DNA of 64,000 nucleotides. Source: Candidatus Latescibacterota bacterium. Its GTDB lineage: Bacteria > Latescibacterota > CBDEFO01. A program made the position numbers and the translations under genes. Location: NCBI GenBank assembly GCA_965237525.1, contig CBDEFO010000007.1, positions 320,001 through 384,000 of the forward strand, read 5' to 3'. Positions 15,448-34,581 of this stretch are shown here, piece by piece. The notes below the pieces were generated by a model that did not search any database, was not told the DNA's origin, and saw nothing but the letters and a program-made list of their open reading frames with translations. Positions within the stretch are counted from its first letter, which is position 1, and the number at the start of each line of letters is the position of its first letter.

Positions 15448-15807
15448 CTACTGCCTTAAGTATCTTCTTAGCATATCCATCAGTTTTGAGTTTCCAAGAC
15501 TTTCGGCTATCTCGGCGTGCTTCCAGGCCAGGTCGTATTGTTCCTGGATGGCGTAGATTTCACCGAGGTTCTTGTGAGCTTTGGCATTTTTGGGATCGAT
15601 TTGAATAGCTTTCTTGTAGGACTCTATGGCCTCCTGAACTTTGCCCTGGCTGTAGTGGAGAATACCCAGGTTGTAGTGTCCCTCGGAAAATTCTGGGTAT
15701 GATTCGCCCACTTTTTTCTGCGCTTCTACAGCGTCGCTTACATCTTTGTCAAGCGCGAACTCAGAAAGCCACCGGAAGACACCCTTTTTTCTATGTGATC
15801 TATCCAC
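15448..15807 (-). CDS. Tetratricopeptide repeat protein
   Basis: HYNLGILHYSQGKVQEAIESYKKAIQIDPKNAKAHKNLG. Confidence 0.85.
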   Translation of the reverse strand: MDRSHRKKGVFRWLSEFALDKDVSDAVEAQKKVGESYPEFSEGHYNLGILHYSQGKVQEAIESYKKAIQIDPKNAKAHKNLGEIYAIQEQYDLAWKHAEIAESLGNSKLMDMLRRYLRQ

Positions 15808-16447
15808 TATATTCCTGGCCTCTTACTCCAAGGTTCAGGTCTCTGTGAAATATATCACGGGATTCAACAAAGAACCTGAAGTATTTTGCAGTCTCTTTCT
15901 GAATTGGATCTGAATTGATCTGAATTAATTCATCCTGAAATGGGTCCTGAAGTTTTAGATCGTCCGGAGTTCTCCTCTCTAAAGTGGAGGCGACAGAGGA
16001 AGACGCTCTCTGTTCTCGGTTGATTGCAGCCATCATTTCCTCTATATAACCTTCGAGTCTGATAACTTCTTCAGCCTTGAATTCTACAATTTCGTCAGCG
16101 TATCTGTTTAACTTTTCCAAAATCGCGTATAGTCGGTCGCAGGTGTGCTTGTATTCTTCGAAAAGCGGCACGTAGGCTCCGAAGTGCTCTTCTTCATATT
16201 GGTCTACTGTTATTTTGTCCCGGAATCTGTCGTTGAAGTGCTTCCAGCGGTCGAGGACTATGGGGGCTCTGTTTCGCGCTCTGTCAAGAGTTGATTCCCA
16301 GCCGAAGGCGCTCGCTCTGTCCACCTTTTCAAGTCGCTTGGCGAAGTCTCTTACCGTGTAGAGTTCCATAATAAATACATTTACGAAGGCATGCATACAG
16401 CCTAAATATTCTGTAAGGGATATTTTATGCTCTTGCCCTATGTCCAA
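15800..16447 (-). CDS. Hypothetical helical protein
   Basis: 215-aa ORF with RBS, overlapping the TPR gene; operon context. Confidence 0.65.
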   Translation of the reverse strand: MDIGQEHKISLTEYLGCMHAFVNVFIMELYTVRDFAKRLEKVDRASAFGWESTLDRARNRAPIVLDRWKHFNDRFRDKITVDQYEEEHFGAYVPLFEEYKHTCDRLYAILEKLNRYADEIVEFKAEEVIRLEGYIEEMMAAINREQRASSSVASTLERRTPDDLKLQDPFQDELIQINSDPIQKETAKYFRFFVESRDIFHRDLNLGVRGQEYSG

Positions 16448-16460
16448 AGTATTCCTCCGT

Positions 16461-17117
16461 TTAGAGTTCCCTGGGTTTGGAAAGACTCAATTTTAGCATC
16501 TCATCGTAGTCGAATAGGATAGCCTCAGCGATGGTCGTCACTTTGTTCGCGGGATTTAAAGCCTCGTTGACGCTTGTCTTGAGCTCCATCCAGTGTTCCC
16601 ATATTTCGGTCTGTCTTTCTATAAGTTCTTGGTCTTTGATCTCCCGTCCTGGTTCAAAGTTGAGTTCGCAGGCGTAGAGTCGTTCTGGGGTAGTCGGATC
16701 GTACAAGGGGATACCGTACTTGCGGCATATTAGCGGTCGTGATTCGTAGATGGAGCAGGCGTCGTTCACAAGGGCTGGGCAGGGGAGTCTGAGTCCGAGC
16801 GATGAGATCTCTTCACCGTTGTCTACAAGAAGCGCGCCGGATTCTTCGGCTCTTTGACGGATTAGGTCTTTTTTTTCACGCAGATAGATAGTTGCTCTTT
16901 CTTGCATCTTGTTGCGGGCAGAAGTATCTAATCTTTTGACAGCGCGCGAGACCAGGGCTGCGTCGATGAGCGTGATCCTGAACATCTGACTGCAGCAGGA
17001 TGAGCATCCTTTGCCACACAGTATCTGGTCCTGATAGATGCGAAGATTACGGTCAAACTCCTGTTCTACAAGACCTACGATGAATCTATATTTTTCAAAT
17101 ACTTCTTTTGTATTCAT
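16461..17117 (-). CDS. YkgJ-family (CxxxCxxCC) Fe/Zn cysteine-cluster protein
   Basis: CGKGCSSCC, CPAL, CSIYESRPLICR. Confidence 0.85.
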   Translation of the reverse strand: MNTKEVFEKYRFIVGLVEQEFDRNLRIYQDQILCGKGCSSCCSQMFRITLIDAALVSRAVKRLDTSARNKMQERATIYLREKKDLIRQRAEESGALLVDNGEEISSLGLRLPCPALVNDACSIYESRPLICRKYGIPLYDPTTPERLYACELNFEPGREIKDQELIERQTEIWEHWMELKTSVNEALNPANKVTTIAEAILFDYDEMLKLSLSKPREL

Positions 17118-17278
17118 AAACTGAGTACCAAGGAAGGAATCTTCTATTTGTCAGAATTTACAATGAAAAATGCCGAAAGAACAAGCTTTCTTCCGGCACA
17201 AATTTGTAGGAGGCAGAGCCGTCTGTCTGCCTTGAGTTGCGCGGACACATGGGTACGCGCCTACTGTTTACTGCCTAT

Positions 17279-17755
17279 TTATTTTAAGGAAATATCGTGC
17301 AGTTCGCTATCCTTTTGCGGGTGATTCTGAGCTTCGGGGGTCTCGCTTCCGTCCAAAAGACCGTTCAGTGCCTCCAAAAGGGCATCTATATCGACTCCGT
17401 AGCCTTCAGCCGCGGGGCCCAGAACATGCTGTTCAGTGATGCTGCAGCTGGAACATCCGCCCAGATGAAAGTTGGACATAACTACTTCTGCGTTGGTATG
17501 GAGCCGTAAGGCTTCAGCGACGGTCATGTCTTTGTGAAATATGGCATCTCCGTTGAGCTTTCTGAACTCCTTCTTTATCATACTGCCCATCTGTTGCTTC
17601 ATATCTTCGCTGGAGACATTTACGTGCCTTCGAACACCATCTATAGAATCTTTTATAAATTCCAGCTCTTCTTTCAGCTTAGACGCGCCTCTCAGATTGA
17701 TCACGTAAAGTGTAAGAAGGACTGTCAAGCCTCCGTAAAGGACTACGCTTTCCAT
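17279..17755 (-). CDS. Membrane-anchored protein with C-terminal CxxC (DUF1858-like redox) domain
   Basis: N-terminal TM helix, coiled coil, DMTVAEAL...FHLGGCSSC...GVDIDALLEALN. Confidence 0.65.
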   Translation of the reverse strand: MESVVLYGGLTVLLTLYVINLRGASKLKEELEFIKDSIDGVRRHVNVSSEDMKQQMGSMIKKEFRKLNGDAIFHKDMTVAEALRLHTNAEVVMSNFHLGGCSSCSITEQHVLGPAAEGYGVDIDALLEALNGLLDGSETPEAQNHPQKDSELHDISLK

Positions 17756-17811
17756 AGTTGCACCACCTTTTTAGTCTGCTAGACAGGGGGCAAGGCGCCT
17801 GTCTACTTGGT

Positions 17812-18090
17812 CTAAGGTATATATTCTGCTAATTCGCTATCAACATCCTTAGGGTCTACTTCCTCACCGTTGTTGAGCCTTTCTATTATGCGTTCTATTA
17901 TCCTTTTGGCTTCTTCCTTTTTAAACTCTTTGATAAAGCCGTTGTAGAAGTGTTCGCCGGCCATGGCTCTGTTTATCTCTGTTTCTTTATCGTGATCGTC
18001 TAACTCCGTGTAATAGACGACGTCGTATCCTCTTTCGTGATACCCTCCCTCTTTGTAGATTTCGAACATGATCCTCTCAGATTCTAGCAT
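17812..18090 (-). CDS. Small acidic hypothetical protein
   Basis: 92-aa ORF with AGGAG RBS directly after the activase gene. Confidence 0.7.
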   Translation of the reverse strand: MLESERIMFEIYKEGGYHERGYDVVYYTELDDHDKETEINRAMAGEHFYNGFIKEFKKEEAKRIIERIIERLNNGEEVDPKDVDSELAEYIP

Positions 18091-18153
18091 ACTTCTACTC
18101 CTTATCAGATGCCGCTCAAGTTGAAAGCCTGAGCGACATCTTTTCTACAGATA

Positions 18154-21100
18154 CTATGCGGTTACGAGTTCTCCCTCTTTTTGGGTTACCTCGACTCCAT
18201 CGAGGGTTCCCTTTTCTGTCAATTCCCGTCTGAGTCGGTCTTCGAACTCTTTCAGCCTATCCTCGATCTTTGCCGTCTTCTCTTTTTCACGGACCATGTC
18301 CTCCATGTATCTCTTGAGGAAGTAATCGATTGTCTCAACCCTGATCTTGATAGATCCTGCGGGTTTATTTTCATCGATGTCCTTAAACGAAAAAGAGGGC
18401 GTTCCGGAGTCTTCGACGATCTCTTCTACTACTGTGTAGATAGGAGCGTCGTGTCCACATTTGAAGCTGGAGAGTTCTAAAGCGACCAGGTTGGGATGTC
18501 TGGCTGTAAATTTTGCTGCCCAGACCTTGCGGCTCGTGTTCTCGCTGTAGGAGTTCTTCCAGGCGTCGGAGATGTCCAACGGATGGGATATTATGCCCTG
18601 TTCAACCTCTTCTCCGAAGAGTTCCCAAAGGATGTCATCGTCTATGGGAAGTGAGTCCTCGGCGAAGACAGGATATCCGAGCTTTTGGAACTCCTCCATT
18701 ATTTCGTGATTTATTCCTGGATCGTTGTGGTATGGACGTCCCAGCAGGACTATACCGAGCTTGTCTTCGGCTTTGAGCATATCGAGGACTTCTCTTCCTT
18801 TGCCTCTCTGAACTACATTATTGAAGTGATCTAAAGCCTTGTAGCCCTCCTCGACAGCTCTTCTGTTCTCCTCTTTGGAGAGTCCGAACTTGGGTCCGAA
18901 CTCCTCGAACATCTGCTTCTGGAAGAGCTTGGGTTCGTCTATGGTGACGAACGTATCCAGGTATTCGATTCCCATTTTTTCGAAGAGGTTGCCCTCTTTG
19001 ATGAATGCGGCTTTGACCGCCTCAGGCGTGGTTGTGACTGTGGGACACGCTCTGCTGCTCTGTACGTTGACCAGATCGGTCGGGATGGAGTCTATCATGG
19101 GGAAGAAGATGTAATCCAGCGGCTTCTTCTTGTGATGCACGTACAGGAGGTTATGGACGTGCGGTATAGCTACCTTGCTGGGGAAGCAGGGGTCTATCGA
19201 GCCACGCTTTGCTCCCTCTTTGTACAGTTCCTGTGTGGTGAAATCCGAATAGACGAGGTTCCTGGGAGGGATTCCTATCGCCTCAAAGTATGCGCTAAAG
19301 AGAGGATTCTGGGAGTACATATTCAAAAGGCGGGGTATGCCTATTCTGATCTCCTGGCGCCTTTTCATCTTCCGGAGGTTCTCTTTGGCTTTCGACGTTA
19401 TGGCGTATTTGGGGATCGGGTCTGCCACTATTTCGGGTTTGTAGCTTTTCCAGACCTCTTTTGCGGCTACCTCGACGAGGTTGGGGTTTTGGGCTTTGGC
19501 TTCATCGAGTCCCTGCTTGATTCCCCGCATGTCCTCTATATCTTCGACGAGTCCCTTTTCACAGCTATTTCCCACGATGAGTCTCTTAAAGCCGGTCTCT
19601 ATGGGTACCTTGGATTTTTTGGATCCTGCGTCTTGGACCTCTTCGTCGCTGACCTTTACGTCTATGAATGTCCTGAGGCACTTGTTCTTGCAGAAGAAAC
19701 AGCGGGTGTTCTCGTCTCTGTGGGTCTGGTAAGTGATAGCTTCGACTGCATCCAGACCGATAAATGAAGTCTCTTTTCCGTTCTCCCACAGCCTTACAGC
19801 TTCAATGGCTGAGCCTATTGCTCCGCTCTCTCCGCAGTGCTCGTGGACGATAATTCTGGCTTTTTCCTGCTGGTCTTTGAACCTGGCCTCTATGAAGTCC
19901 ACCTGTGCCTTTACGGCAGCCAGGTTGTACTGTGTGCCGCCCTGAAGGACGAAGTTGGTTCCGAGCTTTGCCAGATTCGGTATCTGTGAGACGTAGAGCC
20001 AGATGTTTTTGGGGAGGACGTTGGCAAGCCCCGCCATTATCTCCTCGGGCTTCCAACCCTGTCTCTGGAAGTCAACTATGTCGGACTGCATGAAGACTGC
20101 GCAACCGTAGCCGAACATGGGCATAGACTCCGCGCCGAAGGCTATATCGGCAAAATCCTCGACGGTAAATCCGAAGCCTTCCGCAGTACCCTGGAGGAAA
20201 TAGCCGTTTCCTGCTGAGCACTGTGTGTTGAGCTTGAAGTCTTTGACCTGGCGGTTCTTGAGGATCATGATCTTGATGTCCTGTCCGCCTACATCGCAGA
20301 TGACGTCAACTTCATCGTAGAACCTGAGGGCGGCTTCAGTGTGTGCGACGGTTTCGACTAACGCTACGTCTGCGGCGACCGCATCTTTCAGGACGTCTTT
20401 TGCGTAACCTGTCGTGCCGACTCCCAGGACCTTTAGCGTTGCTCCCTGCTCCTCAACCTGCTCTCGTACCTTTCCTACGACCTCTATGGTGTCCTCGATG
20501 GGATTTCCCTTTGAAAGCTGGTAGGATTTGACAAGGACGTTTCTGTCCTTGTCCAAAAGGACAGCCTTTGTGGAGGTTGAGCCGCCGTCGATTCCGATGC
20601 AGCCTTCGACGACCTGTCCGGGGGAGAAGGTGGCAGGGATGAACTTTTTCGTCTTATATTTTTCCATGAAAGCCTCAAGTTCATCGGCAGTTTCGCTGAG
20701 TCCCTTTCCTCCCGCCTTCTGCTTCTCCTCAAGACGACCGACGTTCATGTAGTGCTCTAAGTCAGCTGTGCCTTTATAGACGCCTATTTCTGGTTCCTCC
20801 CCTTTTCCGAATTCGACTGCGCCTATGGCGGCGAAGTACTGGGCGTTTTCGGGGACTTTGATGAGGTCTTGAGGGTCTACACCCTCAGGCAGGGGGTAGT
20901 TTCTCTCCTCCCAGACTTTGGGTATGTTGTACTTCCAGGCTTCGGTCATACCTCTTATGAAGGTGTTGGGTCCACCAAGGAGCAGAACTTCTGGCCTTAG
21001 TGTGTTTCCTCTCGTTAAGACGCTTAAGTTTTGTCCTATGATGGCTTCAAAGAGGGACGCCATAATTTCATCTCGGGGAACGCCCGATTTTTGATGGCTG

Positions 21101-21663
21101 TTGACGTCTGTCTCGGCAAAGACGCCGCACTTTCCTGCGACAGGGTGGAGCTTGATGTCGAAGTATCCCTGGTCGCAGAGCTCCTCCGGCGGGATGCGCA
21201 GCTTCGCATTGATCTTGTCTATTACTGCCCCGGTTCCCCCTGCGCATTTGTCGTTCATGCTGGGGATCTTCCTCTTTCTGCCGGTCTCGGGGTCCTCCTG
21301 GAAGATGATGATCTTGGCATCCTGACCTCCGAGCTCTATGACCGATCCTACCTCAGGATGGAGCTTTTCGACGGCCAGGGATACAGCGTTGACTTCCTGG
21401 ACGAACTTTCCACCTATGTAGCCCGCAACCGAGTTACCGCCGCTCCCTGTTATAAAGATTCGATAATTCTCCGTAGGGAGTCCAAACTCGCCCTCTATTC
21501 GATCTAAGAACTCCATCACCTTTTCCGGCTGTCTGGTATCGTGCCGCTGGTAGTCCTTCAAGAGGATTTCGTCTGTGTCCGGGTTGACTACGATGAATTT
21601 TACGGTGGTGGATCCTACGTCCAGTCCGATCATCAAGCTATCTATAGTATTTTCCGCGCTCAT
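18154..21663 (-). CDS. BadF/BadG/BcrA/BcrD double-ATPase acyl-CoA dehydratase activase fused to a DUF2229-type domain (PlsA/Ger-like)
   Basis: Two ASKHA ATPase domains (GLDVGSTT...ELGGQDAK...MNDKCAGGTG; GIDGGSTST...DVGGQDIK...CSAGNG), CxxCxNxC linker, DPCFPSK, SFKCGHD. Confidence 0.88.
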   Translation of the reverse strand: MSAENTIDSLMIGLDVGSTTVKFIVVNPDTDEILLKDYQRHDTRQPEKVMEFLDRIEGEFGLPTENYRIFITGSGGNSVAGYIGGKFVQEVNAVSLAVEKLHPEVGSVIELGGQDAKIIIFQEDPETGRKRKIPSMNDKCAGGTGAVIDKINAKLRIPPEELCDQGYFDIKLHPVAGKCGVFAETDVNSHQKSGVPRDEIMASLFEAIIGQNLSVLTRGNTLRPEVLLLGGPNTFIRGMTEAWKYNIPKVWEERNYPLPEGVDPQDLIKVPENAQYFAAIGAVEFGKGEEPEIGVYKGTADLEHYMNVGRLEEKQKAGGKGLSETADELEAFMEKYKTKKFIPATFSPGQVVEGCIGIDGGSTSTKAVLLDKDRNVLVKSYQLSKGNPIEDTIEVVGKVREQVEEQGATLKVLGVGTTGYAKDVLKDAVAADVALVETVAHTEAALRFYDEVDVICDVGGQDIKIMILKNRQVKDFKLNTQCSAGNGYFLQGTAEGFGFTVEDFADIAFGAESMPMFGYGCAVFMQSDIVDFQRQGWKPEEIMAGLANVLPKNIWLYVSQIPNLAKLGTNFVLQGGTQYNLAAVKAQVDFIEARFKDQQEKARIIVHEHCGESGAIGSAIEAVRLWENGKETSFIGLDAVEAITYQTHRDENTRCFFCKNKCLRTFIDVKVSDEEVQDAGSKKSKVPIETGFKRLIVGNSCEKGLVEDIEDMRGIKQGLDEAKAQNPNLVEVAAKEVWKSYKPEIVADPIPKYAITSKAKENLRKMKRRQEIRIGIPRLLNMYSQNPLFSAYFEAIGIPPRNLVYSDFTTQELYKEGAKRGSIDPCFPSKVAIPHVHNLLYVHHKKKPLDYIFFPMIDSIPTDLVNVQSSRACPTVTTTPEAVKAAFIKEGNLFEKMGIEYLDTFVTIDEPKLFQKQMFEEFGPKFGLSKEENRRAVEEGYKALDHFNNVVQRGKGREVLDMLKAEDKLGIVLLGRPYHNDPGINHEIMEEFQKLGYPVFAEDSLPIDDDILWELFGEEVEQGIISHPLDISDAWKNSYSENTSRKVWAAKFTARHPNLVALELSSFKCGHDAPIYTVVEEIVEDSGTPSFSFKDIDENKPAGSIKIRVETIDYFLKRYMEDMVREKEKTAKIEDRLKEFEDRLRRELTEKGTLDGVEVTQKEGELVTA

Positions 21664-21760
21664 ATATATCCGCTCCTATGGGTATTTATAGCTAAACATA
21701 GCCAATCGTTTCAAGGAGGAGGAACCGGGGTTTTCCCCTGGCTCCTCCTGTAAGTTCTCC

Positions 21761-23536
21761 CTATGCGGCTTTGTTTGCGTCCTTTTTGCCTTCTTCTGCA
21801 TCCATGCGTTCTTTTATGTGCAGGACGAAGTTAGATGCAACGCTTACGAATCCTTTCTGATGAGGAACCTTGTACATAGGCCGCTTGAGTTCGGGGTGTC
21901 TTTCAACGTAGTCTTTGACGTCCGCTACTGCGAGCCCGGTCTTTTCGAGGGCTTCTTTGAACTCGTTCTTGGCCTTGATCTTCGCCTCTCCGAGTGCCAT
22001 TTGTACTCTGGAGTGGGCGTTAATCTCGCCTTCACCGGACGTCTCAACAGGGAGGTAGATCATGTCCTTGTACTGGGATGTGACTGCGGCTTGCGCGCCA
22101 TCGCTCTGAGTGCTGGGCATGCAGCCGAACGGCTTCATGGAGAGCACCATGTGACAGAGGTCTTTGTTGCTGTAGTAGATGTTCTTGGCGACCTCGAGGT
22201 GCCCTTCACCGCCTCCTGCTCTGGAGTTGTAGAAGGTGTGCCCGAGCCTCTGGAGCTCGTACTGGTCGGTGAGCCCGTGAGCTGTACCTCCCAGGGCTTC
22301 GCGGATCTTATCGTATTCTCTCTTAAAAATCTTCTCTGCAATTGAAAGGGTTCCCAATGTTTTCCTGTAGGCAAAAGCGTTGGAGAGGCGCCCCCGGAGA
22401 TTCCACCACTCGGGCGGCTCTTCGCCTTCCTTTATACCATTTCTGTCCACTGTCTCCTGCTTTGCCTGGTGAATCATGTACGTAATCCACGTCCCGATGG
22501 GCTCTACTAACACCTGAGCGTTTTCTCTTTCCAGGAAGCGGAACATGTTGAAGTTGCCGTCGCCCTCTGTGGTCTGCGCCCAAAACTCGCCCGTAATCTT
22601 GACTAGAGGCTTGACTCTGGTGCGGTCCACATCTATCTCATTGAGGCGATCTCTGACCTGTTCAAGGGCACTGATGTATTTGTCGCCGAATAGCTGCTCT
22701 AGAAATTTACCTAGATATAGAGATTTGTCGAAGACGCTGGGGAACTTTTTCAGAAAACTCCCAATTTTTCCTTCTAACTGTAAGGGTTTTTTGTTCTTTA
22801 TTACGTCATGCATATCGTCCATGCACTCCTTCATGACCCTTTCTGTTTCCCCTTCGTTCACCTCGTAGGGCCTAATCTCATAGCACACTTCATTTATTAG
22901 ATCGCCCATGTTAAGGGCGTTGAGTATTCCGAGGAAGAAGTCGAGGTTCATCTCAAGTCCGGCTTCGACCTCCGCCTGGTCGAGTCCGCCGGACTGCGAG
23001 AAGAGGAGGACTCTGAAGCCGTCGAAGCCTGAATTTCTAAGGGCGAGTCTATATTCGGCTTCGTACATTCCGAACCTGCATGGACCGCACGCCCCTGCGG
23101 TGAAGAAGACGTAGTCATCAATTATGTCTTTCCTGTCCATCCCCCCTTCCTCCAGCTTCTGGAGGTACTGGACGAGGTTGCCTACTGTGAAGTATGTGGG
23201 ATTGCACTGTCCGTTGTTGCCGTATTCCTTGCCGAGTTGGAAGGCCGCAACATCGGGGGTGGGAACGCTTTTGCACTTGTAGCCAAGGGATTCTAAGGCT
23301 CCGTGAATCAGGTGTTCGTGCTTCCAGGTGAGCCCGCCGAAGAGGATAGTCGTGTGATCTCTTTGATCGGCGGTGAAGGCGTTTTCTACGGGCTTTTCGA
23401 AGTGGTGTATATGCTTCTCTTCGATTCCTTCCTTCTCCATCAACCGCTTTCTTTCCTCTTCGAGCTTCTGCCGTATATCATCCTCGATTGAGGAGATCTC
23501 CAGAAGTCCGCCATTTACGATTGGCTGGGTCGCCAT
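21761..23536 (-). CDS. 2-hydroxyacyl-CoA dehydratase-like reductase subunit (PlsR-like)
   Basis: QCNPTY, GACGPCRFGMY, ITGEF, GGEG, PFGCMP motifs; upstream of the activase. Confidence 0.82.
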   Translation of the reverse strand: MATQPIVNGGLLEISSIEDDIRQKLEEERKRLMEKEGIEEKHIHHFEKPVENAFTADQRDHTTILFGGLTWKHEHLIHGALESLGYKCKSVPTPDVAAFQLGKEYGNNGQCNPTYFTVGNLVQYLQKLEEGGMDRKDIIDDYVFFTAGACGPCRFGMYEAEYRLALRNSGFDGFRVLLFSQSGGLDQAEVEAGLEMNLDFFLGILNALNMGDLINEVCYEIRPYEVNEGETERVMKECMDDMHDVIKNKKPLQLEGKIGSFLKKFPSVFDKSLYLGKFLEQLFGDKYISALEQVRDRLNEIDVDRTRVKPLVKITGEFWAQTTEGDGNFNMFRFLERENAQVLVEPIGTWITYMIHQAKQETVDRNGIKEGEEPPEWWNLRGRLSNAFAYRKTLGTLSIAEKIFKREYDKIREALGGTAHGLTDQYELQRLGHTFYNSRAGGGEGHLEVAKNIYYSNKDLCHMVLSMKPFGCMPSTQSDGAQAAVTSQYKDMIYLPVETSGEGEINAHSRVQMALGEAKIKAKNEFKEALEKTGLAVADVKDYVERHPELKRPMYKVPHQKGFVSVASNFVLHIKERMDAEEGKKDANKAA

Positions 23537-23643
23537 ATTGCACCTCTCTTCTCTATTAAGGTTGTCTACTGGTTGTCTACTGGTTGTCTACTGTTCTATT
23601 AAGGTTGTCTACTGTCGTTTCTTGCTCTTTTTCTGCTACTATG

Positions 23644-24069
23644 TCAAAAATTTACTATCCCTTGTGAACCGTATTTTAGTGTCTCATCTACAATTGAGTT
23701 CAAATCGAGATTGTTTTTTGCATCGCTTCTGACTACGGCTGTGTATATCACTTCCTTAACAGTACCTATGATACAGGAGGATACGACATGGACATTGCAC
23801 TCCCTAACTATGCCCATCTCTATTCCCAGTTTTAGGGCAGAGGCTACCATCCCGTGGAGTTTATCATCGAATTCCTGCAACTTTCGGTTGAATTCTTCAT
23901 CTACTCCGCTTGCGTGGTCGAAGAGTATCTTGGTGAGTTCTCTGTTTGACGACAGGAACTCCATAATTATGAAAATGTTGTCTCTTAATTGTTGACGGGG
24001 TTCGGGAGCATGAGGTGAAAGATCTATTCTCTTTATTTTGCCTGAAATCTCGTCTAAGACATGGTCTAA
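23644..24069 (-). pseudogene. TetR-family regulator, C-terminal part only; truncated at IS
   Basis: Frame stays open upstream of the track ORF (LDHVLDEISGKIKRID...) to the IS end; LKLGIEMGIVR...V..CIIG pattern typical of TetR C-domains; no HTH on the far side of the IS. Confidence 0.65.
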
Positions 24070-25588: not shown

Positions 25589-25796
25589 CTAATACGAGAC
25601 AAAAAAACTTCCGAAGTTATGTAGCTATTTTTGAATCTATGTCATACTCCACGGCTGTAAGACCTCACATAGTCTGCATCGCCGTTATTCGTATATCTGC
25701 TGGGGACCCGCGCGCCACGCGCCTTAAGTCGAGTCGTGCCGAGCCCCTTGACAGATTCTTAATTCAAGCGATAGCTTCCTCCAGTTCGAGTTCAGG

Positions 25797-27670
25797 TTAA
25801 CGTTTAGGTATCTCAATTTGAAGGAGGCTGTCTTTGTCAGTAGGGACTGCGCTAGTTATAGGAGAATCATATTCGGGCAGGGGTACATCCCTCATGTTGG
25901 CGTAGACCGGATGTCTGCCCTTTTCCTTGAACCAGTCGCGCGTGGTGGCGTTCATGAACATCTTCTCGATTATCTGCCTCCACCCAACGCCGGTGTTGTA
26001 AGCGCAGAAGGAAATTTCTCCCATCTGCGTGGCGTAGGGGATAATGCACATCTCTGTGCGGCGGAAGTCGTAGGTGAAGAGGTCCTGAAACCACATTCCG
26101 GCGATGAAGAGGATTAGCCACTCGTCCTCTTTTCTGTTTTCGTTGTCTTCTCCTCCGAGCTTGCCCCCAAGTGACCCCCCACTCTGTTTGTCAAACTTCT
26201 TCAGCAGGTCTCTGAGTTTGAAATTTCCGGGCGCTTTGTCGGGGTTGTAGTTTCTCAGAAGTGAAAGGGCAATCTGGAATTTGGTTAGCGCCGGGCCTCT
26301 GTTTGTGTCGGTCATGACTTTTATGTCTTCAAAGAAGCGTTCGACGTTTATGACCTGGGGGAGCGGGGCCCACTCTTTTGTATTCTCTTGTTGACCAGAA
26401 GAGCGGTCGAGATACCGCAGTTGGGATGGCATCCGCACTTCATCGTGCCCCAGTCTGATCCCGCTCCTTTTATTAGGTCTGTCAGATCTGCAATTGCTCC
26501 TGCGGCTGAGATGGGGAACCAGTCCCTCAAGGGCTCGGTGATGCCTGTCTGCGTCTTGGCGTCGTGCGCAAGGTGAGACAGCGTGTATCTTTGTCTTTCT
26601 CTCAGTTCGTCTGTGATGTCTTCGTCTCTTCCCGTGAAAGATACTGGCTGAAAGGCGATAAAGCTGATCTTGTTGGCGTTTTCGACTGCAAAGTCTATAA
26701 CAGGTCCGACCTGGTCGTCGTTGATCGTGTTGACTATAGTAACCACCAGCACGACATCTATTCCAGCTTTGTAAAGGTTTTCGATTGCCCTTAATTTAAC
26801 GTCGAAAAGATTGCTGATTTTTCTGTGGGCGTGGTTCTTGTTTCCCACGCCGTCGAACTGGAGGTAGGCGATCCTCAATCCCGCATCTCTGGCCTTCTCG
26901 GCAAATCCTGGCTCCTGTGCAAAGCGTATTCCGTTTGTAGCAGCCTGTATGCTGAAGTAGCCTATCTCTTCGGCGTAGGCTACTGATTCCAGGAAAATGG
27001 GCGAGATGGTGGGTTCCCCGCCTGAGAACTGGATGGACATTTGCCTTTTGGGCTTAATAGTAAGTGAGTCGTCTAATATCTTTTTTATCTCATCAAACGT
27101 CAGTTCGTGGACGTAGCCGACCTGGTTTGCGTCCATAAAGCAGGGATCGCACATCATATTGCAGCGGTTGGTCAGGTCAACGGTAAGGACAGAGCCTCTG
27201 CCGTACTGGATGGAGGATGTGCCATGGTTGTGAAGGGTATCTGTGATCGCTTTGAAGTCCCTGCCTGGATAGAGCCTTTCGATGCGATCGAAGAATTTGG
27301 GGTCTATGGATATTGTGTCCGTGAAGAGCCCGTGCTTAGGACAGGTCTTCTCCATTACTATCTTGCCGTCCTTTTGGAGGATACTAGCTTTGATCTCTCC
27401 GGGGTGCCCTTCAGTCAGGAGGCTCAAGTCCTCCTCGCCGGAGAGTATCTTTTCCCTTACCTCTTTGACGCACTTGGGACAGAGAGAGTCCGTCTCTCTT
27501 GGCCAACCTAATTTGGGTCTGGAACGTTCCTTGCTCTTCATAAGGGGCTGGGGTGCCCACTTTGGCTGAACAGGATTACCAGGCTTAATTCTATTGAAGG
27601 TCTGAAAGATAGTCCACGTCACTGCTGCTGTTCTGGTAAGCGCAAATTCTAAGGCTTTGGTAGTGTTCAT
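25797..27670 (-). CDS. Radical SAM protein of the tetraether synthase (Tes/GDGT-MAS, MJ0619) family; frameshift near 26385
   Basis: SLCPKC...KTCPKH, DLTNRCNMMCDPCF, IAYLQFDG, FQPVSFTGR, HPNCG in ORF 26348..27670; continues as GMWFQD, MCIIPY, SFCAYN in ORF 25797..26438. Confidence 0.85.
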
Positions 27671-27941
27671 GTGTTCTCCCCCAAATTTGAAGAACTTCTC
27701 TTTACCTTTTTAAGGTTTCCCTACTCTTATGAAACTGATCAGGCTCAAGTCCGTTGCTTTCACTGCTAATAGTTGCTATTTCCATTTGGTGCGTGTACTT
27801 GTCTTATCCGTCACGCTCGCGATAATTATACCTGTTTGTAGAGACAGAACAAAAGTATTTTCACTTAACAGGCGTTTTACACGTCTTTTCGGTCAGAATG
27901 TAGGCTGAATGGTTCGGCATAGTAAAGTTATTGATATTTAG

Positions 27942-29460
27942 AAGCCTTGTGAAATAGTTATGTCCCAGGCAGCGTCTGAAGCGCCGATTATGGGTCAAAG
28001 AGTAGCATATCGTATCGTTTTGCTGTGGAATAAGCAAAATAGTCTTATCAGAGTTCTGGTCAGCAAGGAACAGGAGCTGTTTGAAGAACAGGATGCACTG
28101 TCTTTGACAGACAGGGCACACATAGACGCTTTCCCCCTTCTTATGAAAGATACAAGCCTCTTGAGATTCTGTACTGTTGCAACAAGATTCAACTGTTCAT
28201 TCAGTGAGGCTGGTCCTCTATAACGGGCTCGTCCCATACCGTGTTGTTGCCTGGCTTCAGCAAAGATATGTTCACTGCGTTTACGGAGTCTCCGGGAGAG
28301 TTTGTAGTCAGCTGTTAATGAGATAGACCGTGCATGATTTCTGGCTTTCGCCTCTCGCACTTTTCTATCCCGTTCGGCCTGAATATGTGCTGGATTTGTC
28401 TTGTTTTTCCATGTAGGAATCGGTTCAATCTTCTCATCGGCTCGCAGAGGAATATGGGGTATGATTCCCCGGTCAAGTACATCAGCGATAAAATTACCAG
28501 AACCGTAACCGGTATCGGCACTAAGTGTCTGAATGTCTTTGGGCATGGTGTATGTTTCAAGGTCATCTACCATCTTAAGGGCACTTTCGGGCTCTGCTGT
28601 CCCTGTCGCCTGCGTGCCCTGAGTCTCAAGGATTACTCTGCTTTTTGTGTCGATCAGATCATGGCCCATAAACGAGAGAAAAGCCCCTTTGCCCTTCGAT
28701 TTGCTGTATAAGCGCGCGTCGGGGTCTGTAGTCGAACGGTGTGTTTGGTTCGTCCACTTTTCACCATGAAAGTCTTTATCCTGAGGATGCCCGGACCTAC
28801 CCTTTGTCTTATCACCTTCAAAACCGATTCCCTTGAGATAATCATCAAGAGAAACAGGGGGTTCTATCGGCTCAATACTTTTCACTGAAGCATCAGCTTG
28901 TATCTGAGTGCCGTCGACACTAAGGTGTTTACCGCTCACAAGACCGACATCTATGCAACACTGGACTACCTGACGCATTATCCGTTCAAACAACCCACTG
29001 GATGCCCACTTGTGATTGCGAAGCTTGTTGATCGTGCTCCTATCCGGAACCGCATCATCAAATGTCTGATGACAAAACAACCGATATGCCGCATGCATCC
29101 CCACTTCCTGACAGAGCCGATTCTCACTCAAATTATACAGATAGCCAATAAGGATCATTCGAACAACTAATTCAGGATCAATACCGGGTCTGCCATTGTC
29201 AGGGCAATAACAATCTGATACAACGTCTCGTACAAATGAAAAATCAACTGCCTCATCAATCTGACGAAGGATATGATCCTCGGGAACTAAATCCTCCATC
29301 TGAAAATAGTGAAACATCGGATTTGTCTGTTCCTGCTTTTGTGGGGTCATTGTTTCCTCCATGTATAATATTATCAATAACATAATATAATACATCGGAG
29401 CTGCTTTATCAATGCTTGTTCTATACTACTTTCTGAATCTAAGGGTTTTTCACAAGGCTT
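27942..29460 (-). mobile_element. IS1182-family insertion sequence, copy 2 (1519 bp)
   Basis: Same IRs; TTAG on both flanks (27938-41, 29461-64); transposase 27995..29395. Confidence 0.93.
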
Positions 29461-29488
29461 TTAGTGTCTTATGCTCTTAAACTTTTGC

Positions 29489-29517
29489 TTGACTTTGCAT
29501 CGCCATAGTGTTATACT
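29489..29517 (+). promoter_or_regulatory. Near-consensus sigma70 promoter with extended -10
   Basis: TTGACT (29489-94), 17-bp spacer ending TGT, TATACT (29512-17). Confidence 0.65.
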
Positions 29518-29539
29518 ATTAGCCTGTGTGTCTGTCCCT

Positions 29540-29634
29540 GAATAGCTACTCTAGAAATTTACCTATATGTCGAAGGCGATGGGGAACTTTTTCAGAAAAA
29601 CTCCCAATTTTGCCTTCTAACTGGAAGGGTTTTT
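29540..29634 (+). repeat. Degenerate copy of 22688..22791 (internal to the PlsR-like gene)
   Basis: Manual alignment: 5 substitutions, one 10-nt gap and one 1-nt gap over ~100 bp. Confidence 0.9.
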
Positions 29635-29704
29635 AGAATCACCGTATCGATACTTCTTGTCCTTAAGTAAGGAGATACTTGATGTGTTTTTTGATAGGTA
29701 TTAG

Positions 29705-31224
29705 AAGCCTTGTGAAATAGTTATGTCCCATGGCAGCGTCTGAAGCGCCGATTATGGGTCAAAGAGTAGCATATCGTATCGTTTTGCTGTGGAATAAGCA
29801 AAATAGTCTTATCAGAGTTCTGGTCAGCAAGGAACAGGAGCTGTTTGAAGAACAGGATGCACTGTCTTTGACAGACAGGGCACACATAGACGCTTTCCCC
29901 CTTCTTATGAAAGATACAAGCCTCTTGAGATTCTGTACTGTTGCAACAAGATTCAACTGTTCATTCAGTGAGGCTAGTTCTCTGTAACGGGCTCGTCCCA
30001 TACCGTGTTGTTGCCTGGCTTCAGCAAAGATATGTTCACTGCGTTTACGGAGTCTCCGGGAGAGTTTGTAGTCAGCTGTTAATGAGATAGACCGTGCATG
30101 ATTTCTGGCTTTCGCCTCTCGCACTTTTCTATCCCGTTCGGCCTGAATATGTGCTGGATTTGTCTTGTTTTTCCATGTAGGAATCGGTTCAATCTTCTCA
30201 TCGGCTCGCAGAGGAATATGGGGTATGATTCCCCGGTCAAGTACATCAGCGATAAAATTACCAGAACCGTAACCGGTATCGGCACTAAGTGTCTGAATGT
30301 CTTTGGGCATGGTGTATGTTTCAAGGTCATCTACCATCTTAAGGGCACTTTCGGGCTCTGCTGTCCCTGTCGCCTGCGTGCCCTGAGTCTCAAGGATTAC
30401 TCTGCTTTTTGTGTCGATCAGATCATGGCCCATAAACGAGAGAAAAGCCCCTTTGCCCTTCGATTTGCTGTATAAGCGCGCGTCGGGGTCTGTAGTCGAA
30501 CGGTGTGTTTGGTTCGTCCACTTTTCACCATGAAAGTCTTTATCCTGAGGATGCCCGGACCTACCCTTTGTCTTATCACCTTCAAAACCGATTCCCTTGA
30601 GATAATCATCAAGAGAAAAAGGGGGTTCTATCGGCTCAATACTTTTCACTGAAGCATCAGCTTGTATCTGAGTGCCGTCGACACTAAGGTGTTTACCGCT
30701 CACAACACCGACATCTATGCAACACTGGACTACCTGACGCATTATCCGTTCAAACAACCCACTGGATGCCCACTTGTGATTGCGAAGCTTGTTGATCGTG
30801 CTCCTATCCGGAACCGCATCATCAAATGTCTGATGACAAAACAACCGATATGCCGCATGCATCCCCACTTCCTGACAGAGCCGATTCTCACTCAAATTAT
30901 ACAGATAGCCAATAAGGATCATTCGAACAACTAATTCAGGATCAATACCGGGTCTGCCATTGTCAGGGCAATAACAATCTGATACAACGTCTCGTACAAA
31001 TGAAAAATCAACTGCCTCATCAATCTGACGAAGGATATGATCCTCGGGAACTAAATCCTCCATCTGAAAATAGTGAAACATCGGATTTGTCTGTTCCTGC
31101 TTTTGTGGGGTCATTGTTTCCTCCATGTATAATATTATCAATAACATAATATAATACGTCGGAGCTGCTTTATCAATGCTTGTTCTATACTACTTTCTGA
31201 ATCTAAGGGTTTTTCACAAGGCTT
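29705..31224 (-). mobile_element. IS1182-family insertion sequence, copy 3 (1520 bp)
   Basis: Same IRs; TTAG on both flanks (29701-04, 31225-28); transposase 29759..31147. Confidence 0.93.
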
Positions 31225-31258
31225 TTAGTAAGGATTTTAGATAAAGGATTGCAGAAAA

Positions 31259-33040
31259 ATGCCCAATATACTGCTGGTCTATCCAGAAAACCCTATTACG
31301 TTTTGGAGCTTTTCTGAATCTTTGAAGCTGCTGGGGAAAAAAGCGGCTCAGCCCCCGTTAGGATTATTGGGGGTGGCTGCGCTGCTGCCCGAAGGGTATA
31401 ATCCAAGACTGATCGATATGAATGTTGAACCGCTCACGGACGAAGCGATTGAAGGAGCGGACGCGGTTTTATGTTCTTCGATGATAATTCATCAAGAGTC
31501 TGTAAGGGAAATAATTGACAGGTGTAATCGTCTGGAAACTCCTATCATGTTGGGTGGACCGTATCCGACCCAGTACCACGATTTGATAGAGGGCAACGCT
31601 ACTTTTTTCTTAGGCGAGGCGGAAAATGGGTTTGCCGATGCCCTGGAGGAGATGTTGTACTCACCTGGGGAGATCAAAAGGAGCGTAATAGATACGAAAG
31701 GCCAGTTCCGAAGTTTAGAGGAGGTTCCACTCCCGAGGTACGATCTACTTGATTTATCCGATTATGTTGGAATGATTATTCAACTTACCCGCGGCTGTCC
31801 TGAAAAATGTACTTTTTGCGACATCCCGGGACTCTATGGAAGGACGACCCGACTGAAGACAGAGGAGTTGGTTATCCGAGAAATGGACTACCTTTATGAG
31901 TTGGGATGGCGTGGATCTGTTATGTTTGCCGACGATAATTTCGTGGGTAATCAGGAGGAAGTTTTGATGAAGTTAGAAAAAATCATCCCCTGGCAAAAAG
32001 AGCGCTGCTATCCCTTTCATTTTTATACTCAAGCCAGCCTGAAAATGTACGATAATCCAGATCTAATGGAGGCCATGTATCAGGCGGGATTCGATTCCGT
32101 CTTTATCGGATTGGAATCTCCGTCGGCGGAAAGTCTCAAGTTTATGGGCGCTCAAAAGAACCTGGTCAAGGGGAAATCAATGCTTGAAAAGGTCCTCGAG
32201 ATCGAAAAGAGGTACTTTAAAGTCTGGGCGGGTTTTATAGTCGGCTTCGACACCGATCCGGATGATATATCCGAAATAATGATCGATTTTATCAACAGCG
32301 TTAATATCGAAATAGCTATGGTCGGACCTTTAGGCGTTATGAGGGGCACACCTGACTATATAAGGTATAATAGAGCAGGTAGATTGACCGACAAGCTGTA
32401 CACGGGGAATTCGGGAATCTTTACAGACCAGTTGAGCTACATACCTCACGACAGAGATGGCAACCAGATAGATCCCAGCGTGATAATGGGACGTCACAAG
32501 AAGATTGTAGAGACCCTAAACAGCCCCAAAGTTTACTTCAAGCGCGCTCTCAAGTATTTGAAGATTAAGGAAAGAGCACCGATTGTTGTTCCTCCGGTCG
32601 GGAAATCTGAAATTAGAGGATTGTTCAATTCTATCTATAGACAGGGCCTTAGGGGGAACTACAAGTGGCAATATTGGTCGTTTCTAGCTAAGGTCTGTAT
32701 ATACAATCTGAAGGATTTTCCTTCAGCTGTCAGGAGCGCTATCTTCGGCCATCATTTGATTACAATTACTCAGCAGGCGTCTGACGTGCACGAGTTGAAT
32801 TCCTACCTGGATAAGTCGCTAAAACAGTTGAGTAAGAGTTACGATCAGTTGATAAAGGGATACGAAACGTCTTCAGCTGAGATGTGGGAATTTGGGAGGG
32901 AACTAATTAAAGGGGCAAAGAAACGATACGGAAAGATCAAAGCCGACTATCAGGGGCAGGTGGAGGATGTTTACAATAGCTTTCTAGAAGAGGCGCAGAA
33001 GGTTATAGCTTCGTGTAAGTCCAAGAGATCCATTTTATAG
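31259..33040 (+). CDS. B12-binding radical SAM protein, DUF4070/HpnP-like class
   Basis: ILLVYPENPITFWSF...PPLGLL, GGPY, TRGCPEKCTFC, FADDNF, GFIVGFDTD. Confidence 0.88.
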   Translation: MPNILLVYPENPITFWSFSESLKLLGKKAAQPPLGLLGVAALLPEGYNPRLIDMNVEPLTDEAIEGADAVLCSSMIIHQESVREIIDRCNRLETPIMLGGPYPTQYHDLIEGNATFFLGEAENGFADALEEMLYSPGEIKRSVIDTKGQFRSLEEVPLPRYDLLDLSDYVGMIIQLTRGCPEKCTFCDIPGLYGRTTRLKTEELVIREMDYLYELGWRGSVMFADDNFVGNQEEVLMKLEKIIPWQKERCYPFHFYTQASLKMYDNPDLMEAMYQAGFDSVFIGLESPSAESLKFMGAQKNLVKGKSMLEKVLEIEKRYFKVWAGFIVGFDTDPDDISEIMIDFINSVNIEIAMVGPLGVMRGTPDYIRYNRAGRLTDKLYTGNSGIFTDQLSYIPHDRDGNQIDPSVIMGRHKKIVETLNSPKVYFKRALKYLKIKERAPIVVPPVGKSEIRGLFNSIYRQGLRGNYKWQYWSFLAKVCIYNLKDFPSAVRSAIFGHHLITITQQASDVHELNSYLDKSLKQLSKSYDQLIKGYETSSAEMWEFGRELIKGAKKRYGKIKADYQGQVEDVYNSFLEEAQKVIASCKSKRSIL

Positions 33041-33087
33041 CTTTACGCTTGATAAGTTATGGTTAAGTTACGGCTTCGGCTCTCTGA

Positions 33088-34581
33088 TCAGATGACCGGA
33101 TCTAATTCCGGGTCGTCTCTTTCCACTCTTTCTTGCAATGTGCTGAAGAATTCTTCACGATTCGGCGTGGCAAGTGCGGTCAAGTTGGAGACAGGATCGA
33201 GGTTTTGTACCTGATCTTCGACCCCAAATGTCTTCCAGACGTTCCACAGTCCTTTCAGGCTCAAGCCAGAGATGCCTTTTACGACCCGATCCAAGCGTCT
33301 CAGGGGGTTATAGAACGAAAGGTACGCTTTCTTTATCTTCTCCTCGATGAGTTCTGCCGGTACACTATCTCGATGAAAGACTGCCTTGGTTCCGGAAAAA
33401 TTCGCCCAGTTGTCGTCGAAGATACGATCTTTAGTTCTGTCCCAGTCCACCGTCCCCGGGTAAGGCGTCAAAATAGAAAATTGAGCTTGATGGGCGTCCA
33501 GTTGCCTGGCGTAAGCGATGGTGCGATCGATGTCCGCTTCGGTCTCGTACATAAAACCGATAATAAAAGAGGTGAGCGCTCGGATGCCGTGATGGCGCAA
33601 AAGCTCAACCGCTAGCATTCCTGTATCGAGTTTCATCGCTTTGTTGCAATGCTTGAGAACGTGCTCATTTCCCGATTCAAGTCCAAGAAAGACATTGGAG
33701 CAGCCAGCCTTGGCCATGTGTTCCACAAGGTCAGGATTTTTGACCAGAATATCAGCTCGAGATTGACACCACCAGTAAACCTGCAATTTGCGTTCGATGA
33801 TCTCTGCGCAGAGCTCATGAATGCGCTTGACATTCGTTGTTAAAAGGTCGTCGACCAGTAATACCCCCTTAAATCCAAATTCTTCCAACAATAGCTCCAT
33901 CTCGTCGACTGAAAGTTGTGCCTCGCGCGAGCGCCATTTCCTCTTTTGATACAAAGTCGGCACAGAACAGAACGTGCAGGCGTACGGACAACCGCGGCTG
34001 GTGATCATACTGGTCACAGCCACGCCCCTCAGCCGCGTGGCTTTATAAGGTTCCATGTTCAAAAGGTGACGCGCCGGACCCGGCAGATTATCGACTGTCT
34101 CTATATCGGGACGCTGCGGATTGTCCACCACGACGCCATCTTCTTTATCGTACCACGACAGGCTCGGAACTTTGGTGGGATCAAAGCGCGAGCCCTTTTT
34201 GGCAAGTTCCCGCGCCAGAGCAGAAGCAGCAAGCTCTCCCTCGCCGCGGATAACAAAATCGACACAGTCGAGCTTGAGGGTCGTCTGAGTTGTAAAGGTC
34301 ACATGCGTTCCACCCAGCAACACACGGCAGCCAGCATCGTGCGCATTCCGGGCGTACTCCAGTGCCGAAGGATACTGCGGCGTGGTGCACGTAATGCCCA
34401 CCAGGTCGAACCCGTCGTACGATTCGGTTCCCTCATAGAAGGTCATATCCCGCACTTCGACCTCGTGACCATCTGCAGCAAGTTTGCCCGCAACGTAGAG
34501 TAATCCCAAGGGTGGGAGGATGACACGGGTGGCGTGATAGAGCGAATGCATAGGGGGCGTAATCAACAATATTTTCAGCAT
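33088..34581 (-). CDS. B12-binding radical SAM protein (class B methylase/cyclase-like)
   Basis: PPLGLLY, GGTH, RGEGE, TSRGCPYACTFC, GLESGN, TPYPGT. Confidence 0.88.
   Translation of the reverse strand: MLKILLITPPMHSLYHATRVILPPLGLLYVAGKLAADGHEVEVRDMTFYEGTESYDGFDLVGITCTTPQYPSALEYARNAHDAGCRVLLGGTHVTFTTQTTLKLDCVDFVIRGEGELAASALARELAKKGSRFDPTKVPSLSWYDKEDGVVVDNPQRPDIETVDNLPGPARHLLNMEPYKATRLRGVAVTSMITSRGCPYACTFCSVPTLYQKRKWRSREAQLSVDEMELLLEEFGFKGVLLVDDLLTTNVKRIHELCAEIIERKLQVYWWCQSRADILVKNPDLVEHMAKAGCSNVFLGLESGNEHVLKHCNKAMKLDTGMLAVELLRHHGIRALTSFIIGFMYETEADIDRTIAYARQLDAHQAQFSILTPYPGTVDWDRTKDRIFDDNWANFSGTKAVFHRDSVPAELIEEKIKKAYLSFYNPLRRLDRVVKGISGLSLKGLWNVWKTFGVEDQVQNLDPVSNLTALATPNREEFFSTLQERVERDDPELDPVI

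Follow-up and report, generated by a model that had tools for sequence, protein, structure and literature searches.

A candidate membrane-lipid remodelling locus with PlsA/PlsR-like and Tes-like genes in a Latescibacterota genome, native but damaged by insertion sequences

Glycerol dialkyl glycerol tetraethers of the branched type (brGDGTs) are widely used as palaeotemperature and pH proxies, and few of the enzymes with which bacteria couple, methylate and cyclise them have been assigned. The locus considered here lies in a stretch of 64,000 nucleotides from a Latescibacterota genome (“the window”, G000:C7:320001-384000), where the interval 15448-34581 holds a PlsA/PlsR-like reductase pair, a long-form Tes-like radical SAM gene and two B12 radical SAM genes. 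(G, L, X and C numbers denote genomes, loci, sequencing runs and contigs of a genome, respectively.)

The closest described systems are of three kinds. For the ester-to-ether step there are PlsA/PlsR and Ger (PMC12838417, PMC10087280, PMC13159169): two activase domains plus DUF2229 form the core present in all alkyl-ether producers (PMC13159169), and sequence alone cannot separate alkyl- from vinyl-ether products of the PlsA/PlsR family. For tail coupling there is the archaeal GDGT-MAS, or Tes, of Methanocaldococcus jannaschii (MJ0619; PDB 7TOL/7TOM), bacterial homologues of which have been proposed as brGDGT synthases (PMC8941075). For tailoring, archaeal B12 radical SAM lipid enzymes cluster with lipid synthases (PMC11214058; bioRxiv 10.1101/2025.10.20.683597). 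Bacterial gms clusters with tes or mss are already published; in Solibacter usitatus, a proven producer, Acid_0921/Acid_0922 (proposed PlsAR) and Acid_2410 are brGDGT candidates (PMC10087280); and sponge Latescibacterota have been named as possible ether-lipid producers through their ElbD or Ger homologues (bioRxiv 10.64898/2026.06.23.733905). No description of a tes-plsAR cluster or of a Tes-linked bacterial B12 enzyme was found in the literature searched, which did not extend to subscription papers, so that absence from print is unproven. The value of the locus is in ranking homologues already proposed rather than in a new type of system, with a Tes-tracking B12 enzyme, accessory genes and a tes-minus congener as its additions.

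The source genome (4.58 Mb in 8 contigs, 96.6% complete) belongs to a non-acidobacterial lineage, as an earlier note on this DNA had supposed: the nearest homologues, and proteins of other genomes in its phylum, bear the names Latescibacteria and Handelsmanbacteria, which points to Latescibacterota. Every gene that note listed was found, at the place and on the strand given. It left out three near-identical 1527-bp IS1182-like insertion sequence (IS) copies, which make up 24% of the interval, and its “one minus-strand run” does not hold for this assembly, because an IS has inserted between tes and tetR. The interval reads as follows.

15448..15807, minus strand: TPR protein, 119 aa, final gene of the accessory run (Pfam TPR_1, E 1e-17)
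15800..16447, minus: orf215, 215 aa, without Pfam or NCBIfam match
16461..17117, minus: CxxCxxCC-family putative Zn/Fe-chelating protein, 218 aa (PF03692, E 1.6e-6)
17279..17755, minus: CxxC redox-disulfide domain protein, 158 aa, with hydrophobic N-terminus (TIGR03980, 48.5 bits, cut-off 44.95)
17812..18090, minus: orf92, acidic, 92 aa, which accompanies the reductase in relatives
18154..21663, minus: PlsA/Ger-like activase, 1169 aa (two PF01869 domains, ASKHA ATPase of BcrAD/BadFG type, plus PF09989, DUF2229)
21761..23536, minus: PlsR-like Fe-S reductase/dehydratase subunit, 591 aa (profile search)
23644..24063, minus: tetR remnant without N-terminal helix-turn-helix (alignment to the intact TetR of G147/G148)
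24066..25592, plus: IS1182-like copy 1 (DUF772 and DDE domains; NF033551 262 bits, slightly below the cut-off of 270)
25797..27670, minus: long-form Tes-like radical SAM gene, frameshifted in the window copy (the intact copy elsewhere encodes 623 aa)
27938..29464, minus: IS1182-like copy 2, intergenic (site empty in G001 and run X5)
29465..29700, no strand: fragment of the original intergenic region, containing a 114-bp copy of the plsR-like interior
29701..31228, minus: IS1182-like copy 3 (site empty in G001)
31259..33040, plus: B12a, HpnP-like B12 radical SAM protein, 593 aa (B12-binding, radical SAM and DUF4070)
33088..34581, minus: B12b, Tes-tracking B12 radical SAM protein, 497 aa, candidate lipid methylase/cyclase (orthologue distribution)

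The reading we place first, while holding the evidence to be about evenly balanced on it, is that of an accessory locus for the remodelling of membrane lipids, in which an ether module and a Tes module, usually found apart, have been brought together. The earlier note had proposed a bundle of ether formation, tail coupling and tailoring. Its family assignments stand and B12b does track Tes; linkage of Tes to the reductase turned out to be rare, and B12a to be unlinked.

As that note also suggested, the reductase pair groups with PlsA/PlsR and apart from 2-hydroxyacyl-CoA dehydratase (HAD) activators, in a profile search as in a tree. The activase is 30% identical over ~1100 aa to PlsA-type proteins of Listeria, Fusobacterium, Collinsella and Haliovirga; its matches to YjiL and the Azoarcus activators are confined to single domains. 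A profile of the 591-aa protein (73 homologues, with C111, C150, C153 and C472 invariant) matches the PlsR-type half of four PlsA-type proteins at E-values from 3.5e-13 to 1.6e-27 (Fusobacterium 3.5e-13, Listeria C-half 1e-25), and YjiM and the HGD subunits at about 1, i.e., not at all. Its predicted structure has the fold of HAD and benzoyl-CoA reductase; a PDB sequence search gave no match. In a tree of the second ATPase domain (50 rows, midpoint root, long stem), the window clade (100/100) is sister at 99/93 to four named PlsA-type rows, on a long branch beside and not within them, the PlsA of Clostridium perfringens and the Ger of Thermotoga maritima not being among the rows. A catabolic 2-hydroxyacyl-CoA dehydratase or benzoyl-CoA reductase was considered and rejected: there is no PF06050 match, benzoyl-CoA reductase models score far below cut-off, and the pair stands apart in both tree and profile search.

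With PlsA/PlsR (C. perfringens CPE1195/1194, and single-gene forms) and Ger (T. maritima Tmari_0479) the window pair shares two activase domains and DUF2229 (the BBD core) followed by a PlsR-homologous half, the members aligned being those of Listeria, Fusobacterium, Collinsella and Haliovirga. It differs in having plsR before plsA, in its longer subunits, in a conserved extra gene (orf92), and in forming a well-supported clade of its own. In the metagenome loci surveyed for the reductase (the best 80 of 576), the activase is present in 67 and orf92 in 16; orf92 follows the activase in G014, G147 and G148. The run tetR-plsR-plsA-orf92 recurs in G147 and G148, flanked in G148 by genes for a CDP-alcohol phosphatidyltransferase, a nucleotidyltransferase and an LPG-synthase-TM protein. 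By analogy with the characterized enzymes, the pair likely turns phospholipid glycerol esters into ethers.

Two further occurrences may be recorded here. The cultured Bacillota species Brevibacillus laterosporus (NZ_CP011076.1, L305) carries a pair 48% and 41% identical to that of the window, in the canonical activase-first order, within the window clade and on a long branch. Most other Latescibacterota families have a different double-ATPase activase clade (L006-L030; ~1000-1090 aa, 33% identity), separate both from the named PlsA and from the window clade.

The parallel with S. usitatus extends to domain positions. In Acid_0922, PF01869 covers 353-621 and PF09989 771-1003, compared with 356-621 and 773-1005 in the window activase; in Acid_2410, its second Tes homologue, PF04055 covers 166-330, compared with 166-328 in the Tes-like protein. 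The tag numbers Acid_0921/Acid_0922 suggest plsR before plsA, as in the window. Orthology to these proteins is suggested by domain layout. Unlike those of the window, the S. usitatus genes are scattered (0921/0922, 2410, 5929, 5783), and G000 lacks a canonical Tes of the Acid_5929 type.

The only full-length PDB relative of the Tes-like protein is GDGT-MAS (30% identity, E 1e-66). Its predicted model (pLDDT 84) retains the four-domain fold of that enzyme, with TM scores of 0.69 and 0.85 against 7TOM (0.85 when target-normalised) and a Foldseek E-value of 2e-36. Tes residues were located through an alignment to 7TOL, allowing for a tag offset of 20 residues, the key residues being taken from PMC9433317. 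Across 62 sequences, the radical SAM CX3CX2C motif (C170/174/177) and the rubredoxin ligands C64, C67, C110 and H113 are invariant, as are C418, C541, C555 and M525; Y545 is found in 61. The last five are the equivalents of the C-terminal [Fe4S4] cluster ligands, Met439 and Tyr459 of GDGT-MAS, C418, C541 and C555 apparently being the three cysteines of that cluster. Differences from GDGT-MAS are the lack of the N-terminal [Fe4S4] motif, a 55-residue N-terminal extension, and a bacterial host with fatty-acid lipids. Judged by sequence and model, the protein is Tes-like in fold and ligands and lies outside the Tes equivalog; the earlier note's assignment to the family is thus kept for fold and catalytic ligands, and fails for the N-terminal cluster motif and the equivalog cut-off.

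For the linkage of these modules, surveys covered confirmed Tes loci in GTDB genomes (the best 80 of 589, 33 of them with 10 kb on each side), the reductase loci already mentioned (at least 7 kb downstream in only 29 of the 80), and 168 genomes of the phylum, many of them incomplete. Both modules are adjacent in two of the loci, as plsR-plsA-orf92-canonical Tes-long Tes in L116 and as plsR-plsA-orf92-long Tes in L130. In L143 all five small genes accompany the reductase in window order, among them a TPR gene (61% identical; TPR genes lie near the reductase in 8 of the 80 loci), a 52% identical CxxCxxCC-family gene at the same position, and orf215. The CxxC protein (whose C101 and C104 do not vary among 54 sequences) and orf215 are present in 5 of the 168 phylum genomes: G000, its sole congener G001, and all three genomes of family f12. 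In f12 the CxxC gene is directly 3' of tes and orf215 two genes 3' of it, and no reductase was found in these three genomes. That these two small genes follow Tes is new here; atlas searches with orf215 and orf92 returned just unnamed clusters or low scores. An all-against-all clustering of Tes neighbours, noisy with shadow open reading frames, showed no widely conserved partner. The parts of the locus are tied together by a web of linkages, made up of L116, L130, L143, the f12 genomes, the genomes with tes and B12b, and G010.

B12b is the more closely bound of the two B12 genes. Its orthologues (68-75% identity) occur in 11 of the 168 phylum genomes, 10 of which have long-form Tes, the exception being G001; they adjoin tes in G128 and G129, lie one gene off in G119, and are unlinked in six genomes. 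Sixteen Tes genomes of the phylum have no B12b orthologue. The linkage-positive genomes belong to four related families, so that few independent events lie behind the co-occurrence; for the same reason a Fisher test by genus (7/9 versus 0/40) was set aside and is not relied on. In G001, which has lost tes, B12b carries two 1-nt insertions causing frameshifts, and eight other genes of the locus (9.5 kb) carry none. By co-occurrence, adjacency and apparent joint decay, B12b is a Tes-tracking enzyme, a relation also new here.

The best NCBIfam scores of B12b, BchE (195) and HpnJ (171), are far under cut-off, and no GrsA/B, Gmm or Cgm/Pgm model is among the 25 listed of 28 NCBIfam matches. Like the archaeal tailoring enzymes (GrsA/B, Gmm, Cgm/Pgm and Ted) it has the B12-binding plus radical SAM build, and it clusters with Tes as they do with lipid synthases, a resemblance of build and gene context. 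Of its relatives at 40-44% identity, the one in G010 has a canonical Tes for neighbour, and those in G030, G018 and G013 have radical SAM/SPASM genes. The SPASM proteins concerned presumably resemble Mss or Gms. Each such relative is paired in this way (L295:5892-8742, L297:6368-9229, L298:4408-7241, L262:4153-7245); no SPASM domain was detected by Pfam scan in B12a, B12b or the Tes-like protein.

The earlier note had made both B12 radical SAM genes members of the pathway, which is not borne out for B12a. Its three domains, DUF4070 included, are those seen in HpnP itself and in HpnP-like proteins (PMC10697835), and it is 30-36% identical to alphaproteobacterial and cyanobacterial HpnP-like members. 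No squalene-hopene cyclase (TIGR01507) was matched in the 96.6% complete G000, and of five relatives two gave weak partial matches to PF13243. Orthologues of B12a are spread over 57 of the 168 genomes, near tes only in G000, and five of their neighbourhoods hold no other gene of the window. A role as hopanoid methylase or dedicated pathway member is unsupported, given the lack of a cyclase match and the wide, unlinked distribution; B12a probably stands outside the pathway as a bystander, or else serves more widely as a lipid methylase.

If the locus does work as an accessory remodelling system, its steps can be sketched from the known enzymes. The activase would use ATP to pass low-potential electrons, via Fe-S clusters in DUF2229 and in the PlsR-like subunit, to an ester carbonyl, with an alkyl or vinyl ether as the product, as modelled on PlsA/PlsR and Ger. 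The Tes-like enzyme would then take a hydrogen from a chain end, keep the radical at the C-terminal [Fe4S4] cluster, and join it to a second chain, following the model for GDGT-MAS (PMC13459092); the CxxC protein, next to tes in relatives, might donate electrons in place of the lost N-terminal cluster, which is a guess. B12b would finally methylate or cyclise the spanning lipid, as its linkage and the archaeal B12 radical SAM lipid enzymes suggest. The products expected would be ether-bound membrane-spanning lipids of brGDGT or related type. The locus combines this reductase clade with long-form Tes and yields a short candidate list that includes B12b and the two small Tes-tracking proteins, and G000 and G001 form a natural congener pair with and without tes.

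A number of observations weigh against this reading. The intact Tes-like copy scores 326.9 bits against the Tes equivalog model NF045702, below its cut-off of 450, which the canonical bacterial Tes of L262 and L116 clear at 578 and 595; the N-terminal [Fe4S4] motif (C73, C77, C80 and a His) is present only in the two canonical rows of the 62 and absent here; and the activity of bacterial Tes is described as still unconfirmed (PMC11868695; bioRxiv 10.64898/2026.06.23.733905). The reductase is distant from its models, at 30% (activase) and 20-24% (PlsR-like) identity to PlsA/PlsR-type proteins and on a long branch, and G000 encodes a haem-copper oxidase, whereas PlsA/Ger chemistry is described as anaerobic (PMC13159169). 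Conserved linkage, the earlier note's expectation, is largely absent: the reductase, TetR and the small unknown genes are all missing from the 80 Tes loci, and this Tes is in 2 of the 80 reductase loci. Of the 168 phylum genomes, 27 match Tes (26 long-form, one canonical) and 7 the reductase, and only G000 matches both. Among 50 Tes-bearing genomes of other phyla, picked from the 80 mostly for longer contigs and searched whole, the reductase has a close orthologue in 12, a distant one in 10 and no match in 28. G001 lacks window positions 23649-27694 (tes and tetR), with no tes found elsewhere in it, and keeps the reductase; the frameshifts in its B12b are as expected if B12b decays after loss of tes, assembly error being possible. 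Finally, long-form Tes sits in a different lipid cluster in some acidobacteria.

Much of this is what would be seen if two independent lipid modules had come together by chance, the reductase making mono- or diethers or plasmalogens and no tetraether being formed, an account we regard as possible, if somewhat unlikely. Long-form Tes and B12b might then act, as we tentatively allow, on some other lipid-like substrate (acyl carrier protein-derived, specialised, or by intramolecular ring closure). The near-exclusive distribution of the modules in the phylum and their rarity together in the linkage surveys are in keeping with this, as is the retention of the reductase after G001 lost tes. Long-form Tes occurs in clusters of MMPL/dehydratase/acyltransferase type in several Acidobacteriota loci, and the canonical and long forms side by side in L116 suggest different jobs. 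Chance does not so readily explain why the small genes go with Tes in one family and, in L143, with the reductase, why the modules are adjacent in L116 and L130, or why tes is the first gene of the ancestral run.

Two side observations concern these Tes loci. In L116 (6581-10339) canonical and then long-form Tes come directly after plsR-plsA-orf92, which makes it a better test locus than the window. On a reading of the open reading frames, long-form Tes in L036, L037, L045, L059, L090 and L104, all Acidobacteriota, lies amid genes for an MMPL-like exporter, a FabZ-like dehydratase, acyl- and glycosyltransferases and B12 radical SAM proteins.

The accessory-locus reading has a more ambitious form, which we think improbable without dismissing it: that this is a near-complete, non-acidobacterial gene set for ether-bound spanning lipids, in which the long-form, three-cofactor Tes would be a tetraether synthase fed by the membrane-anchored CxxC protein, the reversed PlsR-PlsA pair would provide the ether step, and B12b would be a brGDGT methylase or ring synthase. 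On this view, Latescibacterota living with sponges would contribute branched tetraethers to the sea.

The reductase clade might instead reduce a non-lipid substrate at low potential, driven by ATP, the lipid reading then being one drawn from distant homology; this is, in our view, distinctly unlikely. The clade's low identity to PlsA-type proteins, long stem and reversed gene order would fit, as would its frequent occurrence in loci without nearby lipid genes and a fold common to HAD, DCCP and benzoyl-CoA reductases. The homology is, however, colinear with both PlsA/PlsR halves and absent for YjiM/HGD; phospholipid head-group genes flank the G148 orthologue; and S. usitatus, with its matching domain layout, makes 17% mono- and diethers without ElbD (PMC10087280).

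The remaining question is how far the order of the genes reflects the IS elements. One IS1182-like element is present in G000 in 134 full-length copies (98-100% identical, with YTAR target ends), ~4.5% of the genome; in the window IS1182-like sequence lies within 24066-31228 and also at 59653-61053, and the G001 locus has none. In G001 (one contig, 95% nucleotide identity) the order is B12b, B12a, plsR-like, plsA-like and five small genes, all without IS; this genome retains DNA upstream of tes, and its sites for IS copies 2 and 3 are empty. Run X5 has the same tes-tetR deletion joint and likewise an empty site for copy 2. Because of this upstream DNA and these empty sites, tes is taken as native here, lost in G001 and copied in G000. 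Recent arrival of tes on an IS was rejected on the same upstream DNA and on its grouping with Tes of the same phylum (FastTree only). The order B12b, B12a, tes-tetR-plsR-plsA-small genes is, from these comparisons, older than the IS insertions, by which the locus was later split, the 5' part of tetR lost from this strain, and tes duplicated onto a second contig.

The damage is visible in two genes. The tetR remnant lacks roughly its first 53 to 60 residues, including the DNA-binding part, when set against an intact relative (33% identity to residues 54-196 of the TetR that lies before this reductase in G147/G148), and the missing part was not detected elsewhere in G000. Contigs of runs X2 and X3 continue for 231-233 nt beyond 24069 in sequence unlike the IS, so that tetR is probably whole in those strains. 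In tes, a 2-nt insertion near 26384-26388 splits the window copy into open reading frames of 440 and 213 aa. An intact 623-aa copy lies between two IS copies at G000:C4:36938-38809, differing from the window over 2.3 kb by that insertion and one substitution. At full depth the insertion is missing from the X1, X2 and X3 contigs, which come from three studies; it is absent also from X9 and the RNA run X16, and present in one depth-2 contig of X5; since other runs carry the intact frame, it is a rare allele or an assembly error. That the cluster is an artefact of IS shuffling or mis-assembly, its genes decaying, is very improbable: the many IS copies, the duplicated IS-tes-IS and IS-236 bp-IS units, the truncated tetR and the frameshifted tes would all suit it, but the IS-free G001 has the same order with empty sites and DNA upstream of tes, other runs have an intact tes frame and an uninterrupted tetR, and tetR-plsR-plsA-orf92 recurs in G147/G148. 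The locus is real and native, yet IS-damaged and dispensable.

Several smaller features of the IS units were seen. The IS-tes-IS unit on the second contig (G000:C4:35144-40540, L001) has differing outer target sites (CTAA and TTAA), so that it may equally well have arisen by recombination or mis-assembly as by composite transposition. The 114-bp plsR-like copy (29526-29634, upstream of B12a and absent from G001) is 82% identical to the interior of the plsR-like gene and, if transcribed with B12a, would be antisense to the reductase mRNA; the IS-236 bp-IS unit containing it recurs at C8:1482278 and C3:405220. Promoter and terminator scans of the locus gave signals at about the level of shuffled sequence or derived from the IS.

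The host bacterium is likely sponge-associated, runs with small word shares having been left out of the habitat reading. RNA contigs from one study labelled “sponge metagenome” extend at low depth over parts of four genes (activase, reductase, tes and B12b), DNA carry-over being possible; they do not cover the five small genes and most of B12a, which says nothing about whether these are silent. Elsewhere in the phylum, G119 also holds two equal-scoring copies of long-form tes (C1:2301049 and 3379825; L288, L302), and another part of G000 has five radical SAM genes inside 9 kb (C8:1894417-1903184).

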